In this document: positions 3,001 through 60,551 of the stretch, piece by piece | Layout: each line of letters starts with the position of its first letter | Numbering within the stretch: the first letter of the stretch is position 1 | Source of the DNA: Candidatus Magasanikiibacteriota bacterium | GTDB lineage: Bacteria; Patescibacteriota; Patescibacteriia; Magasanikbacterales; GWA2-37-8 | NCBI GenBank assembly: GCA_026396515.1 | Contig: JAPLWQ010000002.1 | Location: forward strand, 125,575-189,574 | DNA: 64,000 nt | Reading direction: 5' to 3' | The notes under the pieces: generated by a model | The model's database searches: none | What the model was told of the DNA's origin: nothing | The model's input: the letters and a program-made list of their open reading frames with translations, nothing else | Made by a program: the position numbers and the translations under genes

Positions 3001-4663
3001 TGGAAATAGTACCGGTGCCACTATTGCTTGTTGCATTATTTATGCGCAGACCAGCAGCATTAATAATCGTGCCTGCTTCAATATTAATATCTGACAACAA
3101 CGCCGTCGCATTGGTAATCGTACCGCCGCCAATCCCATTTTCCACATATCCGCTAAGACCGACGGCAACTCCAATACTCCCTGAATATGTCGGGTCATTC
3201 GATCCGTTCATTACCTGACCTCTCATGCCAAAAGCAAAACTAATACTACCAGTAGGGCTTTCCAATTCAACTGACGACACACTGCCAAATGCACCAGATA
3301 CAGCTCCGGTGCCTTGGTGAACTACCTGGGTCATGGTACCCCCGATCAGATCAAAATTGCCGGTACTATTCTGGTTCGTCGTCAGGGTCAACATTGAATT
3401 AATGGTCGAGGAAGAATCCGCGGTAGTATTAAGATCAATAGAATATACGTGGGCCGGTAAAAACGAATCGGCCGGTAAAGAATTGTATTGCTTATAAGTG
3501 CTCAGTAACACTTCATCAGCAATATACCCACTATCACCGATGGCCAAGTGAGAAATTGTTGTGCTGGCCAGCGTACTCGTTCCGGACACATTCAAATTAT
3601 TGTTGACGATAAGAGCGCCGGTCATTGTGTCGCCGGTTATATCAACCCAAAGATCAGTGGAGGTAGACAAAAAGCTGGAAGAGGTAAAGCCACTTGCTAC
3701 CAAGCTTGTACCGTCAAACCACAAAAATTCATAAGGCGAAAACGAAGAGGCGTTTGTGCCGCCGTTAATGATCGGCAAAGTACCGGAAACATCAGAAACG
3801 AGATTTATTGTAGATGTACCCCAAACACCGCCGGACAGTTTAATAAATCCGTTCCAGCCGGAAGTGTCTTGACCGGTACCGCCGTAGGCCGGAGATATAA
3901 TGCCTCCCTGCCAAGTGCCGCCATTAATTATCCCCAAAGTGGATGTGCCGGTAACAGTAAGATTGGCGAGAGATAAATTTGTGCCAGTCGCATTGCTAAA
4001 AGTGAAGTCCGTCAAGGTAAGCGGATTTATTAAAATCAGGTTAGTGATGGTGGTGGTGGCAAAAGTAGAATTGCCAATAACAGAAAGATTGCCGCTGATA
4101 CTTGACGTGGCGGTTGAAGAAGACAAGTTAATTCCGGCGCCGGAATATGAACCAGTGCCGATATTAAAACTTAAGTCATTGCCAAGAGCCAAAAGTTGAT
4201 TTGGCGTGGCCGTGCTGGTGGCGTGAAAACCGTCAACACGATCAGAATTAAGAGCGTATGGATGAGAATTTAATTTAACACGCGGGCTGGCTTCTGCATC
4301 AGTGGAAATTTTTACACCAAGATAGTATGACCCGCTAGAGAAATCAAGATAAGACGGGAATGAAACACAGTCACCCAAGGTAAGAGTAAAATATCCTTGA
4401 GGATCGGGTAATATTTGAGCGCAAGCACCGCTTCCCTGATCGTATGTTTCTGTCCATAGCAGTGACCCACTTTGAGACGGGACATCAATGGGCGAACCAT
4501 TAGTGAGATGATTGTAAATTGAAAATTGAATTGTTGTGGAAGCGGCAATCGGGGTACCGGAATTGTCTCGAAGACGGCCCTGATAGTTAACAGCATTTGG
4601 GATAGCTTCGGCCAGGTCGGAAAAAATAAAAAAAGTAGATAACAATACTGCAAAAATAAGCAT
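1..4663 (-). CDS. Giant repetitive secreted surface protein (partial; C-terminus lies beyond window start)
   Basis: Continuous minus-strand frame from ATG at 4663 to the window edge with no stop in my manual translation. The ORF track omits it only because there is no stop in-window. N-terminus is MLIFAVLLSTFFIFSDLAEA-IPNAVNYQGRLRDNSG (signal-peptide-like). A ~100-aa unit recurs (IGTSSTYELLTVAGGINIGATTTPTSTAGTIAWNG.DFIGY.G..W.SLTSG). Short NxAIGxxAL-type repeats near the window start resemble adhesin / tail-fibre head repeats. Confidence 0.6.
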   Translation of the reverse strand, partial: MLIFAVLLSTFFIFSDLAEAIPNAVNYQGRLRDNSGTPIAASTTIQFSIYNHLTNGSPIDVPSQSGSLLWTETYDQGSGACAQILPDPQGYFTLTLGDCVSFPSYLDFSSGSYYLGVKISTDAEASPRVKLNSHPYALNSDRVDGFHATSTATPNQLLALGNDLSFNIGTGSYSGAGINLSSSTATSSISGNLSVIGNSTFATTTITNLILINPLTLTDFTFSNATGTNLSLANLTVTGTSTLGIINGGTWQGGIISPAYGGTGQDTSGWNGFIKLSGGVWGTSTINLVSDVSGTLPIINGGTNASSFSPYEFLWFDGTSLVASGFTSSSFLSTSTDLWVDITGDTMTGALIVNNNLNVSGTSTLASTTISHLAIGDSGYIADEVLLSTYKQYNSLPADSFLPAHVYSIDLNTTADSSSTINSMLTLTTNQNSTGNFDLIGGTMTQVVHQGTGAVSGAFGSVSSVELESPTGSISFAFGMRGQVMNGSNDPTYSGSIGVAVGLSGYVENGIGGGTITNATALLSDINIEAGTIINAAGLRINNATSNSGTGTISNLYGLYIEEQTLGSDTNFNIYSAGTNSINYFAGNIGIGTTSPEHRLHIVDSENSIMQMMIQNTASGTTAGAALVVQSGNASGGLLMPSENFEYDSGYTNLAGYLTLTAEDNSNGIAMVATGGNKNIIFYTGGLNSSEPYPSTERMRVASTGQVSIGTSSTYELFTVAGGINIGATTTPTSTAGTIAWNGVDFIGYTGSVWVSLTSGSGTPAVPGIAGSGNTGEVTFWSNSSTIAGSSSLYWDNTNGFFGIGTYSPAYKLHISEDTDSILQTVVQNIANGTSTGAATIFEAGTSRGAVMMLGDNFEFGAGNTNLGGYLTLQALYDSNGIALVATGGSRNITFYTGGAGDPDPSTERMRIETNGNVAIGTSSTYERLTVAGGINIGATTTLSDTSGTIAFNGTDFIGYTGTEWLSLTATGTYFGGMNLQQVTDNGNVTTNSIQFAGGTSTAAFYLLNNLSVNGTSTLSTSTISRLIVGGGFPTEMPSDLNFNFASYKQYNHLSNTGSGLEIGNILGMDLNPDEDASTTLNAMFNVTTNESNSRNFDALAGIINQIQHRGSGTVGMAFGQMSTVDLETPTGSIWYALGLQGGVQNGINDASYAGVINNAVGLSGNIENGIGGGTIVNAAAINSSINIEAGTIGEAYGMRINNPTSGSSSGTIGKLYGLYIQEQNFATTSNYNIYSDGANSLNYFGGRMAIGTTSTYELLTVNGGINIGATTSPTSTAGTIAFNGLDFIGYNGSTWLSLTSGTGISGSGSAGQIAFWNASSTITGSSSLYWDNTNNYLGIGTSAPAEAIDVNGNIQISAGNYLKYNGVNLAYGSTTLMNYFFGDAGTSTMITSRNIGIGNLALRSNYNGYNNMAIGAEALRDNTSGSDNMAIGYSAMQFNTTGIQNTAIGTSALSGNIDGADNVAIGYGTLPLVVNTSGNTAIGFQAGQIFVGSNGLFLGIGADTLASASSSDNAIAIGKDAKVGGSNMMVLGGTGADAVSVGIGTSTPYERLT

Positions 4664-20226: not shown

Positions 20227-20262
20227 AAAAAAGAACCCCGACTTAATCGGGGTTCTTTTTTT
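20227..20262. terminator. Bidirectional rho-independent terminator
   Basis: AAAAAA-GAACCCCGACTTAATCGGGGTTC-TTTTTTT. Confidence 0.7.
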
Positions 20263-20267
20263 AGGTC

Positions 20268-20528
20268 TTACTTTGAACATCCTCCGCTGCAACCGCCGCC
20301 GCATTGTCCGCCGCATTGCGTACAACCCGCCGTACAACCGGCCGCTCCGCAGCCACCGGCTTGCGCCCCATGCGCGCAGCCGCACCCGCCATCGCTTTTT
20401 ACGCTTTCCGTAACCGGCTGCAATGTTTTTGAGCTTGTTGCGCCACCGGAATACGCTGCGGCTATTCCGACTCCAACTATTAGGGTCGCAGCCGCCGCAA
20501 TTCCGCCTATAAACCAAAGTGGTTTCAT
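20268..20528 (-). CDS. Small secreted Cys/Gly-rich peptide (signal peptide + ~40-aa C/G/A-rich tail)
   Basis: 86 aa: MKPLWFIGGIAAAATLIVGVGIAAA... then CGCAHGAQAGGCGAAGCTAGCTQCGGQCGGGCSGGCSK. Shares CGC...CAHx motif with the C-terminus of 20674..21441. Confidence 0.5.
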   Translation of the reverse strand: MKPLWFIGGIAAAATLIVGVGIAAAYSGGATSSKTLQPVTESVKSDGGCGCAHGAQAGGCGAAGCTAGCTQCGGQCGGGCSGGCSK

Positions 20529-20673
20529 GAAAAATATATTATCCGTCTATACGGTTGAGTTATTTTGTGCCGCCCCCGGAAGTGTCCAGTACCCATACTA
20601 CCGGGCAAGCCGGAGGTGGCGAAATATTTTCTCGAGCGCTCATAGAGTATTACGCATGCCAAAAAAATTTCTT

Positions 20674-21441
20674 TCACTCACCGCAGCCACAGCCCGATCC
20701 GGCGCCACAAGTCGCGGTCGCATGCGCACAGGCCGGCGCGACTTGCTGATCGCACCCGCCACATCCGCACCAGGAACGAATTTCCACTGCTCTGAAACTG
20801 CTGGTGCCAAAACGCTCGCCAATAATTTTAATTTTAGCTCCGAGAACCGTGTATTCCACACCGATAGTGCCGGACACCGCCACTTGCCACCTGCGGCCGT
20901 CCTGATCGGTTAGAATAAAATTATATAAATCATCTATTCCTTCAACCTTGCCACCCAAAAGCCCCTGGTCAGGCATTACCCACATCATCCTGTCGCCCTG
21001 CAAATGATGATAAAAAGAGGTTGAATCGGCAATCGATTCTTCAATCATGTGGCCCAAGCCTAAACGATAAAAAACCCCGCCCAATACAACAGTTGAAACA
21101 ACATAGATAATAATTACTTTTGACAAGGTAAACCGGTAGCCATATTTTGTATGCCGCAGGTTGTAATGGGCAAGCAAAATAAAACCAACAAAAATAAGCA
21201 GCCAAAAATACGGAAAAATGAAAAAGACATATTTCCAAACACTGCCGGTAGCCCGGCTCCAAAGATCCCATTCAGCGTTAGCGATGGAAAAAAATGTAAT
21301 AGACACAGCAATACTGCCGACAACCAAAGCGGTTGCGGTCAGAGACCAAAAAATTGACCGTTTCAAAAATACGGCGTAGCGCGAACTCGGATGCATGTTT
21401 TCTTTTTCAATTTTTTCCAAAACTTGTTGGCTAAGCTCCAT
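20674..21441 (-). CDS. Membrane protein, putative anti-sigma factor / sensor, with Cys-rich C-terminal tail
   Basis: 255 aa with ~4 TM helices. C-terminus WCGCGGCDQQVAPACAHATATCGAGSGCGCGE. Start overlaps the ECF sigma gene stop by 11 nt. Confidence 0.5.
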   Translation of the reverse strand: MELSQQVLEKIEKENMHPSSRYAVFLKRSIFWSLTATALVVGSIAVSITFFSIANAEWDLWSRATGSVWKYVFFIFPYFWLLIFVGFILLAHYNLRHTKYGYRFTLSKVIIIYVVSTVVLGGVFYRLGLGHMIEESIADSTSFYHHLQGDRMMWVMPDQGLLGGKVEGIDDLYNFILTDQDGRRWQVAVSGTIGVEYTVLGAKIKIIGERFGTSSFRAVEIRSWCGCGGCDQQVAPACAHATATCGAGSGCGCGE

Positions 21442-22009
21442 ATGTTTTCAATATTTTATTCAACCGCTTTTTTGCTCTGCTAATCAACGTACCGATAGTA
21501 CTCGCCGGCTTACGCAAAATATCCGCCATTTCTTCATAAGTTCTTTCTTCTAAATATTTTAACACGATGGCATCGCGATATTTTTCCGGCAAACGGTCAA
21601 TAGCTTTTTCAAGCCGCGCTCTATCCATCCTTGCATTCATTTCATTATGCATATCATCCCCGCTTTTTATTTTCTCCCAGTCCTCATTCTCAAGAATCAC
21701 ACTCGGTCTGGCTTTTCTTTTACGCCATTCACTGATCGTTTCATTGTGAACAATGCGATATAGCCATGAAGAAAATTTCAGCTTTCTGTCAAAATCATTC
21801 AGATTCAAATATGCCTTTATGTATGATTCCTGTAAAATATCTTCGGCGTCTTCACTGCGTAAACCGGACAAACGGCGGATATATGCGAGAAGCCGGCCCT
21901 GATACCGGCGCATCAAAACTCCAAAAACCTCGCTTTTTTTAATGGAAAGCGACACGAGCTCTTCATCAGCCATTGTTTCTAACTGTCCGTTTGGCATAAA
22001 TGGATACAT
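21431..22009 (-). CDS. ECF-type RNA polymerase sigma-70 factor
   Basis: 192 aa. Region 2 (ILQESYIKAYLNLNDFD...FSSWLYRIVHNETISEWRKR) and region 4 (DAIVLKYLEERTYEEMADIL) signatures. Confidence 0.8.
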   Translation of the reverse strand: MYPFMPNGQLETMADEELVSLSIKKSEVFGVLMRRYQGRLLAYIRRLSGLRSEDAEDILQESYIKAYLNLNDFDRKLKFSSWLYRIVHNETISEWRKRKARPSVILENEDWEKIKSGDDMHNEMNARMDRARLEKAIDRLPEKYRDAIVLKYLEERTYEEMADILRKPASTIGTLISRAKKRLNKILKTYGA

Positions 22010-22043
22010 CTATATTACGGATAGCATAACAGGTTTATTTCAA

Positions 22044-41109: not shown

Positions 41110-41427
41110 TTACAATCGGCGCGCCAGGAACTGGTTTTTTGTCACGCTATTTATTATCGTTACTTTTGTTTGTGATACTTTCGGCTGCTCAACCTCTGTC
41201 GTATTTGTTTTCTCACTCGTTGTGACATTTGTAGCGTTAGAAGGTGACGCTACATTTATATCAGGGTTATTTACCCCTATTACATTACCCGACGCATCTC
41301 TTTGCACCATTACCAAATCTTCCGCTGACTGATTGTTTTCACAACCGGCCAAAAATACCGAACCGGAAACCACAAAAATTAAAATTAAATATTTCATAAA
41401 TATATTATTTAGGTACATGTTGCCCAA
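41110..41427 (-). CDS. Small lipoprotein (lipobox LAGC)
   Basis: MKYLILIFVVSGSVFLAGC... Thr/Asn-rich mature part. Confidence 0.5.
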   Translation of the reverse strand: MGNMYLNNIFMKYLILIFVVSGSVFLAGCENNQSAEDLVMVQRDASGNVIGVNNPDINVASPSNATNVTTSEKTNTTEVEQPKVSQTKVTIINSVTKNQFLARRL

Positions 41428-41951
41428 TAAAACGGACTCTTGATAACACCATTATCAAATATCCAGTTGCTATATGGGTCATTGTATTCACTGCACTGTG
41501 CCACGATATTAACTGTCGTCGGGCATTTATAAGAATCAACGTAGCCTTCATTTACATTCATTTTACAGTTCGCCAATTCTCTTGGTTCATTTCTTGACGC
41601 ACCGGATACTTGAACTGAAACTTTTGACATATCAGGCATAACAACCATACACTGACCTAGGCAATCTTCTTTTGTACGGCATGTTTTACCGGCATCCGAC
41701 AATTTATGTAGGCAGGTATTGCCACACGATGTTCGTTGCATTTTTCCTCCGGATATGGCACAACGTGCATCAATAGTTTTTCCAACAATAAGCACGCCCA
41801 AAGCGATAGGCGCCTGCATCATAAATTTTACAGGGCCCATTTGCCCTCTCACATTCTTATCTACTAACGGATAAACAACCAACATGCTGCCAACATCAAT
41901 TATTACCAAGACCGCCAATATAATTAACGTGATTTTAAAACCTTTACTCAT
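41409..41951 (-). CDS. Membrane-anchored Cys-rich protein, paralogue 3 of a tandem triplet
   Basis: 180 aa. N-terminal MSKGFKITLIILAVLVII TM. Conserved Cys pattern shared with the two upstream paralogues (C..SGGK....CG..C.HKL.DAGK.C....DC.G.C.....DMSKV...........EP.EL.NCKM......V.SY.CP..V.I.A.CS.Y...). Confidence 0.6.
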   Translation of the reverse strand: MSKGFKITLIILAVLVIIDVGSMLVVYPLVDKNVRGQMGPVKFMMQAPIALGVLIVGKTIDARCAISGGKMQRTSCGNTCLHKLSDAGKTCRTKEDCLGQCMVVMPDMSKVSVQVSGASRNEPRELANCKMNVNEGYVDSYKCPTTVNIVAQCSEYNDPYSNWIFDNGVIKSPFYWATCT

Positions 41952-41964
41952 ATAAAAATAATCA

Positions 41965-42429
41965 CTAAATTGCCCACGTATATGGGCTAATAATTAAACC
42001 ATTATCATATGTCCAGGGCGAAACTTGCTCAAAATATTTACTGCATTCTGCAACAATTTTTACGCTTGGCGGGCATTGATATGAATTAATTAAACCGCCA
42101 GATGACCCCATTTTACAATTTACCAACTCTTTAGGCTCATATCTTTTTTTGTCGCTTGTTAGACTTGTAACCTTGGACATATCCGGCTCAATAACCTGAC
42201 AAAATCCCTTACAGTCTTTATTGTTTTGGCACGGTTTACCCGCATCGCCTAATTTATGAAGGCACGTCTTCACACAAGCAATTCCACATTGCTCAACATA
42301 TTTTCCGCCAGTCACCCAGCATGTTGCGCCGCGCAACGGCTTCAAATTCCAGGGTTTATAAAACCACAAACCTGCGCCGACAGCTAAAATAATGATAATT
42401 AATAGCGACACTTTAAAACCTTTGCTCAT
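41965..42429 (-). CDS. Membrane-anchored Cys-rich protein, paralogue 2
   Basis: 154 aa. MSKGFKVSLLIIIILAVGAG... The same 10-Cys framework. Confidence 0.6.
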   Translation of the reverse strand: MSKGFKVSLLIIIILAVGAGLWFYKPWNLKPLRGATCWVTGGKYVEQCGIACVKTCLHKLGDAGKPCQNNKDCKGFCQVIEPDMSKVTSLTSDKKRYEPKELVNCKMGSSGGLINSYQCPPSVKIVAECSKYFEQVSPWTYDNGLIISPYTWAI

Positions 42430-42452
42430 AAAATATCAAAAAAATTAATAAT

Positions 42453-43022
42453 TTACATTCCCATATACTCCCGGTTTAAATTTACCGTTCCGTTTTCATA
42501 ACTCCAATATAATTCATTTCCGCTATAATCGTATTTTTGACAAGTTGATTGAATTTGTACCGTCGAAGGGCACACATATGACCTTAGAACAGGGTTAATG
42601 CCCAATTCATCTTTGGTTAAGGTAATTTTTCGACAATTAATTAAAACAGTCGGCTCAAGATCGGAAATTTCTCCGGTTATTTTATCTCGCGCAGGAACTG
42701 GCAAATTCGCAATGCATTTGCCATCACACTCTTTTGAACTTGCGCATGCTTTCCCGGCGTTCTTGTTTGCCCGATCACATATGCTACCACAGCTTATTCC
42801 GCAATTACTGACGACCTTACCCCCGGTCACCACGCAGAATACATTCGATATTTTCTTAATTCCTTCGATAACGAGTATAATTGGAGCCTTAATTATAGCT
42901 TCTCCCATATTCTTAACACTGCCCTCGTTCTTAATTTCCTTTACAGCTAATGCTAAACCGATAACAACTAATAAGGACACAGCCACCAAAATAATTAATA
43001 TCTTTTTAAAAGACGAACTCAT
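42453..43022 (-). CDS. Membrane-anchored Cys-rich protein, paralogue 1
   Basis: 189 aa. MSSSFKKILIILVAVSLLVV... More divergent but with the same Cys spacing (CVVTGGK...CG.SCGSIC...AGKAC...ECDGKC...NCRK...YVCPSTVQI.STC). Confidence 0.55.
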   Translation of the reverse strand: MSSSFKKILIILVAVSLLVVIGLALAVKEIKNEGSVKNMGEAIIKAPIILVIEGIKKISNVFCVVTGGKVVSNCGISCGSICDRANKNAGKACASSKECDGKCIANLPVPARDKITGEISDLEPTVLINCRKITLTKDELGINPVLRSYVCPSTVQIQSTCQKYDYSGNELYWSYENGTVNLNREYMGM

Positions 43023-58529: not shown

Positions 58530-59095
58530 TTATGTATTTCTCCGGGTGTAACATCGGCTGCGGTGCAATCCAAACTGGCATCCAATGTCTCTTCTTCTGC
58601 GCAAGGATTACTCGGATTTGCGCTACTATAGGCACAAGAGCCGCCTTTCGACATACAATCATTGCCACCACCCGAACCCCCGCCGGTTCCGAGACGCAAT
58701 AACACAAATGTAGTGATGGCGTATGACGATAATAATATCATCAATCCAATAACTGAGGTGGCAATTATCTTTTTCGCCCGGGTCACTTCTTCATCGCGCC
58801 CGGCAGCTTTTATCCAAACAAATCCGCCGTAAATAGTGAGAATTAAAAAAACCGTGCCCAAAATATAAAAACCGCCTTTTAATATATCTTCGGTAAAGGA
58901 AGAAACATCGGACGACAGCCCAACGCTCGTTTTCATACTATTAAGCTTTGCGCCGGCCGCTCCTATCCCTCGTGGCGCGTCATCGCCGGCAAAAACACAG
59001 ACTGGAATAATTAACCAGGCAATTATAGCAACAACAATTGTTTTGCGTAAATTCATATATTTCTTATGCACCACAACAGACTCGCTGGGTCTCAC
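58514..59095 (-). CDS. TrbC/VirB2-like pilin-like protein with Cys-rich C-terminal tail
   Basis: 193 aa. Core TVFLILTIYGGFVWIKAAGRDEEVTRAKKIIATSVIGLMILLSSYAITTFVL. Tail GGGSGGGNDCMSKGGSCAY...CCMP. Confidence 0.5.
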   Translation of the reverse strand: MRPSESVVVHKKYMNLRKTIVVAIIAWLIIPVCVFAGDDAPRGIGAAGAKLNSMKTSVGLSSDVSSFTEDILKGGFYILGTVFLILTIYGGFVWIKAAGRDEEVTRAKKIIATSVIGLMILLSSYAITTFVLLRLGTGGGSGGGNDCMSKGGSCAYSSANPSNPCAEEETLDASLDCTAADVTPGEIHKCCMP

Positions 59096-59552
59096 CGCTT
59101 GGTGGACAGGTGCCTATAACTTGGCCCGACGGACAGCTACTCATCGGCGTACAAACACCACCCAGCTTACTGCTACAATCTTCAGTTCCTTCAACATCAC
59201 CACTCTGGCCAAGCCGGGAAGCGACAAAAGCAGTAATTGTATAAGCAAACAAAATAATCGCCAAACCGATAACCGCTCCAATAATAATCTTTTGCGCTTT
59301 GCCAATCTTTTCTTCGTTACCGGACGCCGTCATCCACATGACACCGCCAACAACCGTTAACACTAAAAAAATCGTGCCCGTCACAGCCAGTATTGCCGTA
59401 ATAATATTCGCTGTGCTCGTGTTAAGATCTGATTCCAAACCGACTCCACCAACCGATTGATTCAACAAACCCGAGCCTAACGCATCCGCAAAAACAAACT
59501 GCGGCACGAAAATAATTAGCAGGGCAATGGTGATGAGCAGTATTTTTTTCAT
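59064..59552 (-). CDS. TrbC/VirB2-like pilin-like protein with Cys-rich C-terminal tail
   Basis: 162 aa. Core TIFLVLTVVGGVMWMTASGNEEKIGKAQKIIIGAVIGLAIILFAYTITAFVA. Tail ...CSSKLGGVCTPMSSCPSGQVIGTCPP...VCCGA. Confidence 0.5.
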   Translation of the reverse strand: MKKILLITIALLIIFVPQFVFADALGSGLLNQSVGGVGLESDLNTSTANIITAILAVTGTIFLVLTVVGGVMWMTASGNEEKIGKAQKIIIGAVIGLAIILFAYTITAFVASRLGQSGDVEGTEDCSSKLGGVCTPMSSCPSGQVIGTCPPSGETQRVCCGA

Positions 59553-59558
59553 AAAATA

Positions 59559-60551
59559 TTATTTGAGGTATTTATCACTAACATTAGCTTCAAATGTCCC
59601 AAGACAACACTTAACATCATTGTTCTTCTCCCAAACTCCATAGCAATAACCAGGTTTCAAATTTTTTGACGCGTTGTCGCAGGTAAATAATGTCGTATCA
59701 ATACAAGTGCCTCCAAGTTTTGCACAATTCTTACAACAAATCTGGCCGGTTGGGCAGCCTTGTGCGTCCTCCGATGGCTTACCGTTGTGAATCTCTGCAC
59801 AAGCAAATTTTTCTGCACAGAAAAATCCCGCTTGTTTTTCACAGGCGTTCTGCTCCTGAGCGCCGCCCTCTTCCTCTTTAGGCGCCATTGCCCCGGAATT
59901 CATCCAAGCTACATAGGCTTCGGGAGGCACACAACATTCAAGTCCTTCAGTACTGCATAAACCTGTAACAATTTTTTTATCTTCACATCCTTTTTGGGCG
60001 GTGTCGATGCATGCTCCCCCTCCATCTTTAAAGGCATAATCACACTCACTTACACATTTCTTACTTTTACATACTTGGTTCACGCCCTTAGCCGCGCATT
60101 CCTCGGCATATACTCCATCCGGCGTATTTGCGCACACCTGGCCCGCTTCTTGTATAAAGGTATCAAAAATAAAAATTGTAATGGTATAGGCGGATAGAAC
60201 AATCACAAGACCTATCACTGCTGACTGTAGGCGGCTCTTGGCCGCCCCCACTTTTTCCTGAGATCCGGCCGCCGTCATCCATGTAAAGCCGGCGAATAGA
60301 ATTAATATAAAAAAATAGACACCGACCAGCGATAAAGCAATAGACACTAAACTGCCTAATACTTTAGGAATACTTCCGCCTGTCGCGCCTGCAGAAATTT
60401 GGTTGGATGCGAGGCCTGATTGCGAGCCGGCAGTTGAGAGACCATACGGGTCATCTGCTGCTTTAACAATATTTATTGCCAACCATAACGAAGCCAACAT
60501 TATTGACGCGGCCACCACTGCCACAGTTAATTTTGAGAAATTCTTAATCAT
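59559..60551 (-). CDS. TrbC/VirB2-like pilin-like protein fused to ~200-aa C-terminal ectodomain with ~30 Cys
   Basis: 330 aa. Core GVYFFILILFAGFTWMTAAGSQEKVGAAKSRLQSAVIGLVIVLSAYTITIFIF followed by a long Cys-rich region (CANTPDGVYAEECAAKGVNQVCKSKKCVSECDY...CCKNCAKLGGTCIDTTLFTCDN...). Confidence 0.5.
   Translation of the reverse strand: MIKNFSKLTVAVVAASIMLASLWLAINIVKAADDPYGLSTAGSQSGLASNQISAGATGGSIPKVLGSLVSIALSLVGVYFFILILFAGFTWMTAAGSQEKVGAAKSRLQSAVIGLVIVLSAYTITIFIFDTFIQEAGQVCANTPDGVYAEECAAKGVNQVCKSKKCVSECDYAFKDGGGACIDTAQKGCEDKKIVTGLCSTEGLECCVPPEAYVAWMNSGAMAPKEEEGGAQEQNACEKQAGFFCAEKFACAEIHNGKPSEDAQGCPTGQICCKNCAKLGGTCIDTTLFTCDNASKNLKPGYCYGVWEKNNDVKCCLGTFEANVSDKYLK

Follow-up and report, generated by a model that had tools for sequence, protein, structure and literature searches.

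A conserved extracytoplasmic function sigma factor module of Patescibacteria with a small thiol-rich protein as its apparent output

Introduction

What might a bacterium monitor with a sigma factor whose gene overlaps that of a membrane protein ending in a cluster of cysteines, and which is followed by a gene for a small, Cys-rich protein with an export signal? This question is raised by three adjacent genes in a 64,000-nucleotide stretch of the genome of a Candidatus Magasanikiibacteriota bacterium (assembly GCA_026396515.1, contig JAPLWQ010000002.1, positions 125,575 to 189,574), which was analysed as a whole and is called the window below. A first-pass annotation of this DNA had proposed a circuit made of an extracytoplasmic function (ECF) sigma factor, an anti-sigma-like membrane protein and a secreted peptide. 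We conclude that the trio is a genuine conserved three-gene regulatory unit and that the peptide appears, from its promoter, to be switched on directly by the sigma factor. With moderate confidence, we read the whole as an ECF sigma/anti-sigma module that is self-contained, regulates itself and has a small thiol-rich protein, made for export, as its dedicated output. Sequence evidence supports the regulatory wiring well; its chemistry is something that we infer, and the trio is probably a thiol-based defence against a metal or an oxidant.

Three adjacent genes form one conserved unit

All three open reading frames (ORFs) lie on the minus strand and are present where the first-pass annotation had placed them. 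They encode an ECF (group 4) sigma-70 factor of 192 amino acids (aa; 21431..22009), a putative anti-sigma factor of 255 aa (20674..21441) and an exported Cys/Gly-rich protein of 86 aa (20268..20528), to which we refer as the peptide. The sigma and membrane genes overlap by the 11 nt described earlier (21431-21441), the gap before the peptide ORF, first given as about 150 bp, measures 145 bp, and the C-terminal sequences quoted for the membrane protein and the peptide were found correct on re-reading. What had been called a strong terminator is an intrinsic, bidirectional one on the minus strand (20227..20261), a 16-pair hairpin followed by a T-run that closes both the trio and the convergent gene of an S66 peptidase. 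On the other side, the trio is bounded by a hairpin terminator (22076-22048) at the end of the upstream ribosomal protein S1 gene. The DNA of the Cys tail had been described as locally GC-rich, and the stretches coding for Cys, Gly and Ala indeed reach a GC content of 0.64-0.70 vs 0.45 for the window.

The proposed circuit is supported by the pairing of its first two genes, by matching promoters and by the conservation of the peptide across homologous loci (referred to by L numbers). An ECF sigma gene stands directly upstream of a gene of the membrane-protein family in 20 of 20 loci, including four whose membrane proteins have no Cys tail, and the two genes mostly overlap or sit at most 8 nt apart. 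We collected 16 loci with a Cys-tailed membrane gene, 12 of which contain DNA downstream of that gene, and a peptide ortholog follows in all 12, down to 34% identity; the four loci without Cys tails contain none. When two Kuenenbacteria loci (L017 and L018) were reached from the peptide side, they again showed the succession of sigma factor, Cys-tailed membrane protein and peptide. The same search from the peptide side delineated a family of 16 clusters, all of them from Patescibacteria and all unannotated.

The first-pass annotation had made its proposal depend on the 86-aa ORF being expressed. In pairwise codon comparisons, the proportion of nonsynonymous differences (pN 0.19-0.37) lies far below that of synonymous ones (pS 0.52-0.77), so that the ORF is a real gene under purifying selection, and the ratio of the corresponding substitution rates (dN/dS) is 0.11-0.36 where calculable. 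Judging from this conservation, it is very unlikely that the ORF is not a gene.

The sigma factor and its predicted promoters

The assignment of the first gene to the ECF sigma factors was confirmed. The protein contains region 2 (Pfam Sigma70_r2, PF04542, 3.2e-16) and region 4 (Sigma70_r4_2, PF08281, 1.5e-15) only, and it passes the NCBIfam model of the ECF superfamily, TIGR02937 (98.5 bits; cut-off 42.9). The nearest named NCBIfam models are those of SigW and SigM; none of the equivalog cut-offs for SigW, SigM or RpoE is reached, and the best match is SigW PRK09641 with 106.3 bits against 209. The main text of the paper on ECF classification does not mention CPR groups (that is, groups of the Candidate Phyla Radiation).

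Two promoter-like sites accompany the trio on the minus strand. P_sig (TGAAAT-N17-CGTAATA, 22013..22042) lies directly upstream of the sigma ORF and suggests autoregulation, while P_pep (TGAAAG-N16-CGTAATA, 20648..20676) precedes the peptide, with the TGA of its -35 element doubling as the stop codon of the membrane gene. These are the only occurrences of TGAAA-N(16-19)-CGTAATA in the 64-kb window, which holds exactly two sites and no third, against 0.07 expected; none of 100 shuffled sequences reached two. Across loci, the consensus of this ECF-type motif is TGAAA-N16/17-CGTAWTA with minor -10 variants. The position of P_sig is kept in L001-L003, L005-L008, L011-L018 and L019 and that of P_pep in 14 loci, and an alignment of the intergenic region from six loci shows two invariant blocks, TGAAAG and GCGTA.TA, 16 nt apart. 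Both promoters of L016 carry the variant -10 element TGTAYTA in place of CGTAWTA, a shared change that is what one sigma factor reading both promoters predicts.

The SigW-type promoter consensus of Bacillus subtilis is TGAAAC-N16-CGTA. The motif of the trio resembles it in sequence, SigW being also the best named match of the sigma factor. With one motif at both sites, fewer occurrences expected by chance than found, and orthologous positions that are kept, the two sites have the sequence features of an ECF-dependent autoregulated promoter pair. The membrane and peptide genes have no terminator between them, so that the peptide gene may also be transcribed by read-through.

The start of the sigma gene lies unusually close to its promoter. 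In most loci (the window, L002, L003, L006, L007 and L013-L017), the first sigma ATG follows the -10 element CGTAWTA by 3-12 nt and has no Shine-Dalgarno sequence, which suggests that the sigma mRNA is leaderless or near-leaderless. In the window, translation may in fact begin with the conserved ATG at 21994 (MPNGQLE...) and not with that at 22009.

Two further elements follow P_pep on the minus strand. Just past its -10 element, around the expected transcription start, stands the GC-rich palindrome GAGCGCTC (20634..20641). The equivalent site in L005, L007, L012, L014-L017 and L021 stays palindromic while its sequence varies by lineage (GAGCGCTC, GAACGCGTTC, GAGGCCTC, GGGCCC and GTGAACGTTTCAC), and it may serve as the operator of a second regulator or form a structure at the 5' end of the transcript. 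Farther on, the 5' untranslated region of the peptide gene contains a conserved 52-nt stem-loop (20569..20620). Its minimum free energy gives modest support (z = -2.09), and its covariation gives clearer support, with 91.7% of cells paired vs 40-63% in slid controls and four pairs changed on both sides. The stem-loop is found in the Magasanikbacteria-like clade only and is absent from L003 and the distant lineages. We also considered a riboswitch or other known RNA in the 145-nt spacer and rejected it, with no Rfam match in 20529-20673 even at E<=10; the weak Rfam matches in the region all fall on the terminator.

A CPR membrane-protein family as putative anti-sigma factors

The second gene had been described as encoding four transmembrane helices with an extracytoplasmic C-terminus. 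We find three helices, both in the Kyte-Doolittle profile (window centres 38-47, 76-84 and 111-120) and in two AlphaFold models, so that the earlier count falls and the orientation stands. The protein consists of an N-terminal cytoplasmic helix (aa 3-13), transmembrane segments at aa ~21-54, 68-97 and 106-140, an oligonucleotide/oligosaccharide-binding (OB) fold and the Cys tail. Its loop 2 (YNLRHTKYGYRFTL) contains three Lys or Arg residues and no Asp or Glu, which by the positive-inside rule places this loop and the N-terminus in the cytoplasm. The tail is put outside because there are three helices and the N-terminus is inside, and it is only this count that puts it there.

The ectodomain is, in the predicted structure, an OB-fold (aa ~155-224; 20770..20979, minus strand). 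AlphaFold with a 124-sequence alignment (predicted local distance difference test score, pLDDT, 78; predicted template modelling score, pTM, 0.68) gave an N-terminal helix (4-13), three long transmembrane helices, a five-stranded barrel at 161-223 with a pLDDT of ~90 and a disordered tail. Weak matches to Pfam BOF (PF04076, the periplasmic OB-fold proteins YgiW/YdeI) occur in 4 of the 124 family members, and the window protein itself has no match in Pfam, NCBIfam or PADLOC.

The trio protein differs from the known anti-sigma families with which we compared it. Neither the window protein nor any of the 124 family members matches zf-HC2, RskA or another anti-sigma family of Pfam. Class I anti-sigma factors carry at their N-terminus a four-helix anti-sigma domain of ~80 aa, to which the zinc-binding type (RsiW, RsrA, ChrR) adds HxxxCxxC, whereas the trio protein has one helix before its first transmembrane segment at ~21 and no Cys there. 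Nor does it resemble NrsF (DUF1109), having three rather than six transmembrane helices and no DUF1109 match. We take it as the cognate anti-sigma factor because a sigma gene stands immediately upstream in all 20 loci, and on this gene context we call it a putative anti-sigma factor of a family absent from Pfam and NCBIfam.

This family is large. An exhaustive profile search, with representatives defined as clusters at 50% identity, found 2,483 of them at E<=1e-3 and 1,230 at E<=1e-30. A separate metagenome scan was seeded with an alignment of Cys-tailed proteins only, a wide alignment of 65 sequences being too diverse for it. Members align over profile positions ~2-225 and then split into a hypervariable tail of 15-40 residues. 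Named sources are Pacebacteria, Moranbacteria, Parcubacteria, Kuenenbacteria and Magasanikbacteria, all entries being annotated as hypothetical, as is the exact window protein in a metagenome-assembled genome (MAG) of Candidatus Magasanikbacteria. The 64-kb window contains no paralog.

The Cys tail and its relation to the peptide

The tail of the window protein (aa 225-255; 20677..20769, minus strand) reads CGCGGC-x8-CAH-x4-C-x5-CGCGE and contains seven cysteines. Close homologs (14 clusters) retain SWCGCGGC...C.H...C...C.C, the minimal motif of the clade is WCGCxxC-x(6-8)-C-x(2-4)-C, and C225, C227, C230 and C238 are invariant over 18 sequences, down to 31% identity. In a neighbour-joining tree of the core region, from which the tail was excluded, all WCGCxxC members form one pure clade of 25; further CxC-type tails are scattered elsewhere in the same tree.

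The first-pass annotation had seen in tail and peptide two copies of one Cys module, one tethered and one secreted, and this claim did not hold. In local alignments from seven genomes, the tail matched its own peptide no better than composition-preserving shuffles did (fraction reaching the observed score 0.15-0.54), and we therefore rejected homology between the two. A codon-shuffle test at the DNA level gave p = 0.08. Comparisons of tail with tail and most of peptide with peptide lay well above their own shuffles, with that of the window peptide and the divergent L002 peptide being marginal (0.063). Tail and peptide share only their composition (C/G/A, no aromatics) and a leading CGC, so that the two copies are an analogy of composition and not homologs. 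A repeated, independent association of Cys tail and peptide was likewise not demonstrable, since the WCGCxxC members form a single clade.

Relatives without a Cys tail are instructive for the logic of the family. In L019, L020 and L021, the sigma and membrane genes are followed by a TGAAA-N16/17-CGTA motif and a gene for a small secreted protein, which is not Cys-rich and differs by lineage; in L004, the remaining such locus, the motif is missing, as is any downstream gene in the same orientation. It thus appears that the general logic of the family is a sigma/anti-sigma pair with one adjacent, sigma-dependent secreted protein, of which the Cys-tail clade is the version with a thiol-rich sensor tail and a thiol-rich target. 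The make-up of the family suggests that the C-terminal tail is a swappable specificity element. Tails without cysteines are often rich in Met and His, rich in Pro or strongly basic (P0033, P0060, P0085, P0101 and others). The targets in L020 (4040-4459) and L021 (3934-4476) belong to a common family of helical repeats, DYNAW...F..M.EAH.LMEEGK.EEA, that has no Pfam match, and they may be secreted stress proteins. For L019, the downstream protein seemed by eye to repeat the OB domain and tail of the sensor in soluble form (PWISGKGG vs AWAGKGG), an idea that we discarded at a BLASTP E of 31.

The exported Cys/Gly-rich peptide

The peptide begins with MKPLWFIGG and a hydrophobic segment with an AxA-like site (aa ~1-26), from which its export is predicted, and continues through a linker into a 38-aa Cys region (20271-20384) with 9 Cys (24%), 14 Gly (37%), no Phe, Trp or Tyr, and CxC and CxxxC spacing. 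Orthologs share a pattern in which M(K/N)(P/S/K)LWF(I/L)GG is followed by a hydrophobic stretch that holds an AxA-like site, then by a linker and CGC...CGG.C...C.C...C, with 7-9 Cys. The Cys region passes a test for metallothionein-like make-up (high Cys, no aromatics, CxC/CxxC), which speaks of composition only; no metallothionein family of Pfam or NCBIfam matches, searches of Pfam, NCBIfam and PADLOC returned nothing for the peptide as a whole, and a search of PDB sequences with the peptide profile gave spurious matches only.

The unusual N-terminus bears on the role of the peptide, which could also be that of a regulatory partner. A membrane-anchored protein of the CpxP-like or YhdK/YxlD-like kind would dock on the anti-sigma factor through transmembrane helices and the Cys tail, by shared metal or mixed disulfides, and would re-silence or tune the switch; we hold this to be possible and on the whole unlikely. 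It would explain why MK(P/S)LWF(I/L)GG is conserved like the cysteines at 34% identity, M1 and G9 being invariant and W5, F6 and G8 nearly so, which is unusual for a generic signal peptide, and it would fit the long h-region (~20 residues) with a single N-terminal Lys. It would also suit the observations that each examined family member with a downstream sigma-motif gene has a small secreted protein beside the sensor and that the Cys counts of tail and peptide rise together (7 with 8-9; 5-6 with 7). This last correlation is, however, phylogenetically confounded, and the hydrophobic segment of every ortholog has an AxA-like signal-peptidase site after it, which speaks against this reading. In a further reading, the peptide would be a decoy or partner for the Cys tail of the anti-sigma factor through metal exchange or mixed disulfides, such that sigma activity would be governed by the proportion of free peptide to ligand and different tails would be matched to different secreted targets, a proposal that we likewise regard as doubtful.

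Feed-forward sensing by MibX/MibW has been proposed in microbisporicin biosynthesis. By analogy, the peptide could be the precursor of a peptide made on the ribosome and modified after translation (RiPP), a bacteriocin or a signal whose product or maturation is sensed by the anti-sigma factor, as the first-pass annotation had offered as an alternative; this would be possible if the maturases were encoded elsewhere. To our knowledge, CPR genomes are small and poor in RiPP-maturase enzymes, which speaks against it, and we consider it very unlikely. The gene itself would suit such a role, being small, with an ECF promoter and a core rich in Cys, Ser and Thr, and RiPP precursors with a Sec signal are known, e.g., the bufferins (PMC11626156). 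In L003, moreover, a gene for a C39-type peptidase stands beside the trio in place of that of the S66 peptidase. Yet precomputed Pfam lists covering 4-6 kb on either side of the trio at nine loci from several lineages (L001-L007, L017 and L018) contain no radical SAM, MNIO/DUF692, DUF2063, LanB/C/M or YcaO protein, and this lack of any maturase-type gene weakens the earlier suggestion of a sensed maturation. RiPP precursor families, including SCIFF/ranthipeptide and lanthipeptide, gave no match with E<1, the best RiPP-type NCBIfam matches having an E of at least 1.2. Compared with the bufferin precursors, the peptide has an N-terminal hydrophobic segment with an AxA-like site and a Cys-rich core, and it shows no similarity to DUF2282 or BUF_6/12Cys.

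SigW-like ECF systems classically answer envelope stress, and the trio might do so too, with the peptide as a structural or protective component of the envelope, a disulfide-crosslinked Gly/Cys-rich surface protein made under generic stress, and the Cys tail as no more than a structural Zn or disulfide knuckle that stabilises the OB domain and takes no part in thiol-specific sensing. In keeping with this, the organism exports other Cys-rich proteins (41409-43022 and 59064-60551), and the broader family keeps the same OB-fold with tails that lack Cys. We think it quite improbable, given that a Cys-rich tail and a Cys-rich target are kept together over the whole clade, down to 34% identity, and that nothing in the peptide, neither a hydrophobic core nor aromatic residues, points to a folded structural unit.

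The genes that follow the peptide differ between lineages. A Kuenenbacteria-like lineage has a TrxB-like pyridine-nucleotide disulfide oxidoreductase after the peptide gene (L014, 2367-3290; L017, 4446-5755), and L017 also encodes a 90-aa lipoprotein with four DnaJ-type CxxCxGxG motifs (PF00684, 4e-5); terminators part these genes from the peptide gene in L014 and L017. The TrxB-like gene and the CxxCxGxG lipoprotein are a hint, from this single lineage, towards thiol redox chemistry. In the distant lineage of L016, a gene for a 195-aa membrane protease of the M50 family (3951-4538; site-2-protease-like, HEYAH ... LDG) lies 400 nt downstream of the peptide.

A working model and the points against it

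The reading that we favour, an autoregulated module with a thiol-rich exported output, can be put as a model in which the anti-sigma role, the cue, the buffering by the peptide and the feedback loop are all things that we infer. The 255-aa protein would hold the sigma factor at the membrane, the likely contacts being its short conserved N-terminal helix and the loop YNLRHTKxGYR, which is cytoplasmic, basic and conserved, and its extracytoplasmic OB-fold and C-terminal Cys cluster would form the sensor. The cue would be thiol-reactive, whether as a soft metal ion (Cu, Zn or Cd) or as an oxidant or electrophile, and would alter the Cys cluster; the changed anti-sigma factor would be inactivated or degraded, freeing the sigma factor to transcribe its own operon from P_sig and the peptide gene from P_pep. 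Once exported, by way of a signal peptide or held by an N-terminal anchor, the peptide would use its nine cysteines to bind that agent or quench it at the cell surface, and this would relieve the sensor as a negative feedback.

Several observations weigh against this model. The anti-sigma role is drawn from gene context, no known anti-sigma family matches, and the cytoplasmic N-terminus, at ~20-28 aa, falls far short of the length of a class I anti-sigma domain. The proposed sensor element, the Cys tail, is disordered in the AlphaFold models, and the evidence is equally compatible with a metal and with an oxidant as the cue. Given the other exported Cys-rich proteins in the window, the cysteines may simply form structural disulfides. 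Because the WCGCxxC proteins are one clade, the co-occurrence of tail and peptide represents a single origin kept through deep divergence, and relatives without Cys tails, with the same architecture and unrelated targets, indicate that the logic of the family needs no thiol chemistry.

Neighbouring genes and related loci

The other exported Cys-rich proteins of the window are encoded in two groups on the minus strand. At 41409-43022, three tandem paralogs (180, 154 and 189 aa) encode membrane-anchored proteins with the common Cys-rich motif C..GGK....CG..C...C..K..DAGK.C.....C.G.C; at 59064-60551, two adjacent genes encode proteins of 162 and 330 aa with a signal peptide, a transmembrane hairpin and Cys-rich C-terminal domains. 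Closer to the trio, a plus-strand gene between ftsH and the S66 LD-carboxypeptidase gene (18619-19197) encodes a conserved, unannotated 192-aa protein with a HELYE motif and no Pfam match, and syntenic genes for proteins of 187-189 aa are found in L001, L003, L005 and L018.

Just upstream of the sigma operon, L003 (1721-3074) and L006 (3324-4367) contain a reverse transcriptase gene (RVT_1) that the window does not have, and a bAvd-like gene beside it in L003 suggests a diversity-generating retroelement. L008 (GTDB record CAYOXC010000005.1) shows a complete trio with Magasanikbacteria-like synteny in a MAG labelled "uncultured Gammaproteobacteria bacterium", which is probably a binning or labelling error.

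Discussion

ECF sigma/anti-sigma pairs that have an exported peptide of their own are already known in kind, and the trio comes close to SigF/NrsF of Caulobacter vibrioides. There, two conserved cysteines of NrsF are required to keep sigma-F inactive, and sigma-F is freed under Cr or Cd (PMC3511200); it drives the bufferins, Sec-exported Cys peptides that complex and buffer copper (PMC11626156). Both systems combine an ECF sigma factor with a multi-pass membrane regulator encoded second in the operon, a conserved promoter motif, which in the trio appears to depend on the sigma factor, and small Cys peptides as targets, exported in Caulobacter and predicted to be so in the trio, and the extracytoplasmic cysteines by which NrsF holds its sigma factor have a counterpart in the extracytoplasmic Cys tail of the trio protein. 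NrsF nevertheless belongs to another family than this OB-fold protein with three transmembrane helices and no Pfam match, and bufferins need the adjacent maturases MNIO (DUF692) and DUF2063, neither of which occurs in the nine annotated trio neighbourhoods. Caulobacter sigma-F is moreover only weakly autoregulated, whereas the autoregulatory promoter of the trio is as conserved as its target promoter.

SigF/NrsF of Azospira suillum control MrpX, a periplasmic peptide rich in Met that serves as a sacrificial target for oxidation by hypochlorite, and this MrpX/YedY system resembles the trio in its sigma/anti-sigma pair, its exported peptide of biased composition and, in Azospira, its very small regulon (PMC4436054). 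MrpX is Met-rich and recycled by a co-regulated periplasmic methionine sulfoxide reductase; the trio peptide, by contrast, is Cys/Gly-rich and comes without a conserved linked recycling enzyme, the TrxB-like gene standing downstream in one lineage only. The trio may work like both SigF/NrsF systems by analogy, without homology to either.

Other comparisons cover single parts of the trio. SigW/RsiW of B. subtilis is similar in its sigma factor (best profile matches SigW/SigM), its promoter type and its autoregulated sigma/anti-sigma operon. RsiW, however, has a class I zinc-binding domain and one transmembrane helix, whereas the trio protein has ~20-28 cytoplasmic residues, three such helices and an OB-fold, and the SigW regulon is large while the trio motif has only two sites in 64 kb. 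With bacterial metallothioneins (SmtA/BmtA, MymT), the peptide shares, in composition only, a short region of ~24% Cys that is rich in Gly, Ala and Ser, has no aromatics and shows CxC/CxxxC spacing; the known ones are cytoplasmic, however, while the peptide is predicted to be exported and matches no metallothionein family. TcdC of Clostridioides difficile, finally, is like the trio protein a putative anti-sigma factor that is anchored in the membrane and exposes a C-terminal OB-fold at the surface (bioRxiv 10.1101/872283), but it has a single transmembrane helix, a sigma factor of the TcdR class (group 5) and no Cys tail, and no sequence relationship between the two was detected.

Our literature searches found no description of the trio system. 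What is new here is a putative anti-sigma family unmatched in Pfam, NCBIfam, PADLOC and these literature searches, together with an unannotated peptide family restricted to Patescibacteria. Gene regulation and sensing in the CPR or Patescibacteria are almost unknown because these organisms are uncultivated and their genomes small. The locus described here is a complete, compact and portable unit in which a sigma factor is joined by a candidate anti-sigma factor, by two cognate promoters and by a single target, and rebuilding it in E. coli or B. subtilis could show what a CPR cell senses. Beyond this locus, the standard ECF partner in the CPR radiation appears to be a large unannotated membrane family (about 2,500 representatives at 50% identity), whose hypervariable C-terminal tail may hold the specificity for the signal. 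If the peptide works unmodified as an exported buffer, be it metallothionein-like or a sacrificial thiol, it would correspond in simpler form to the bufferin and MrpX defences of Proteobacteria; if it is a decoy or partner of the Cys tail, the trio would represent an extracytoplasmic mechanism in which an effector titrates its own sensor, in an undescribed, putative anti-sigma family found across the CPR.

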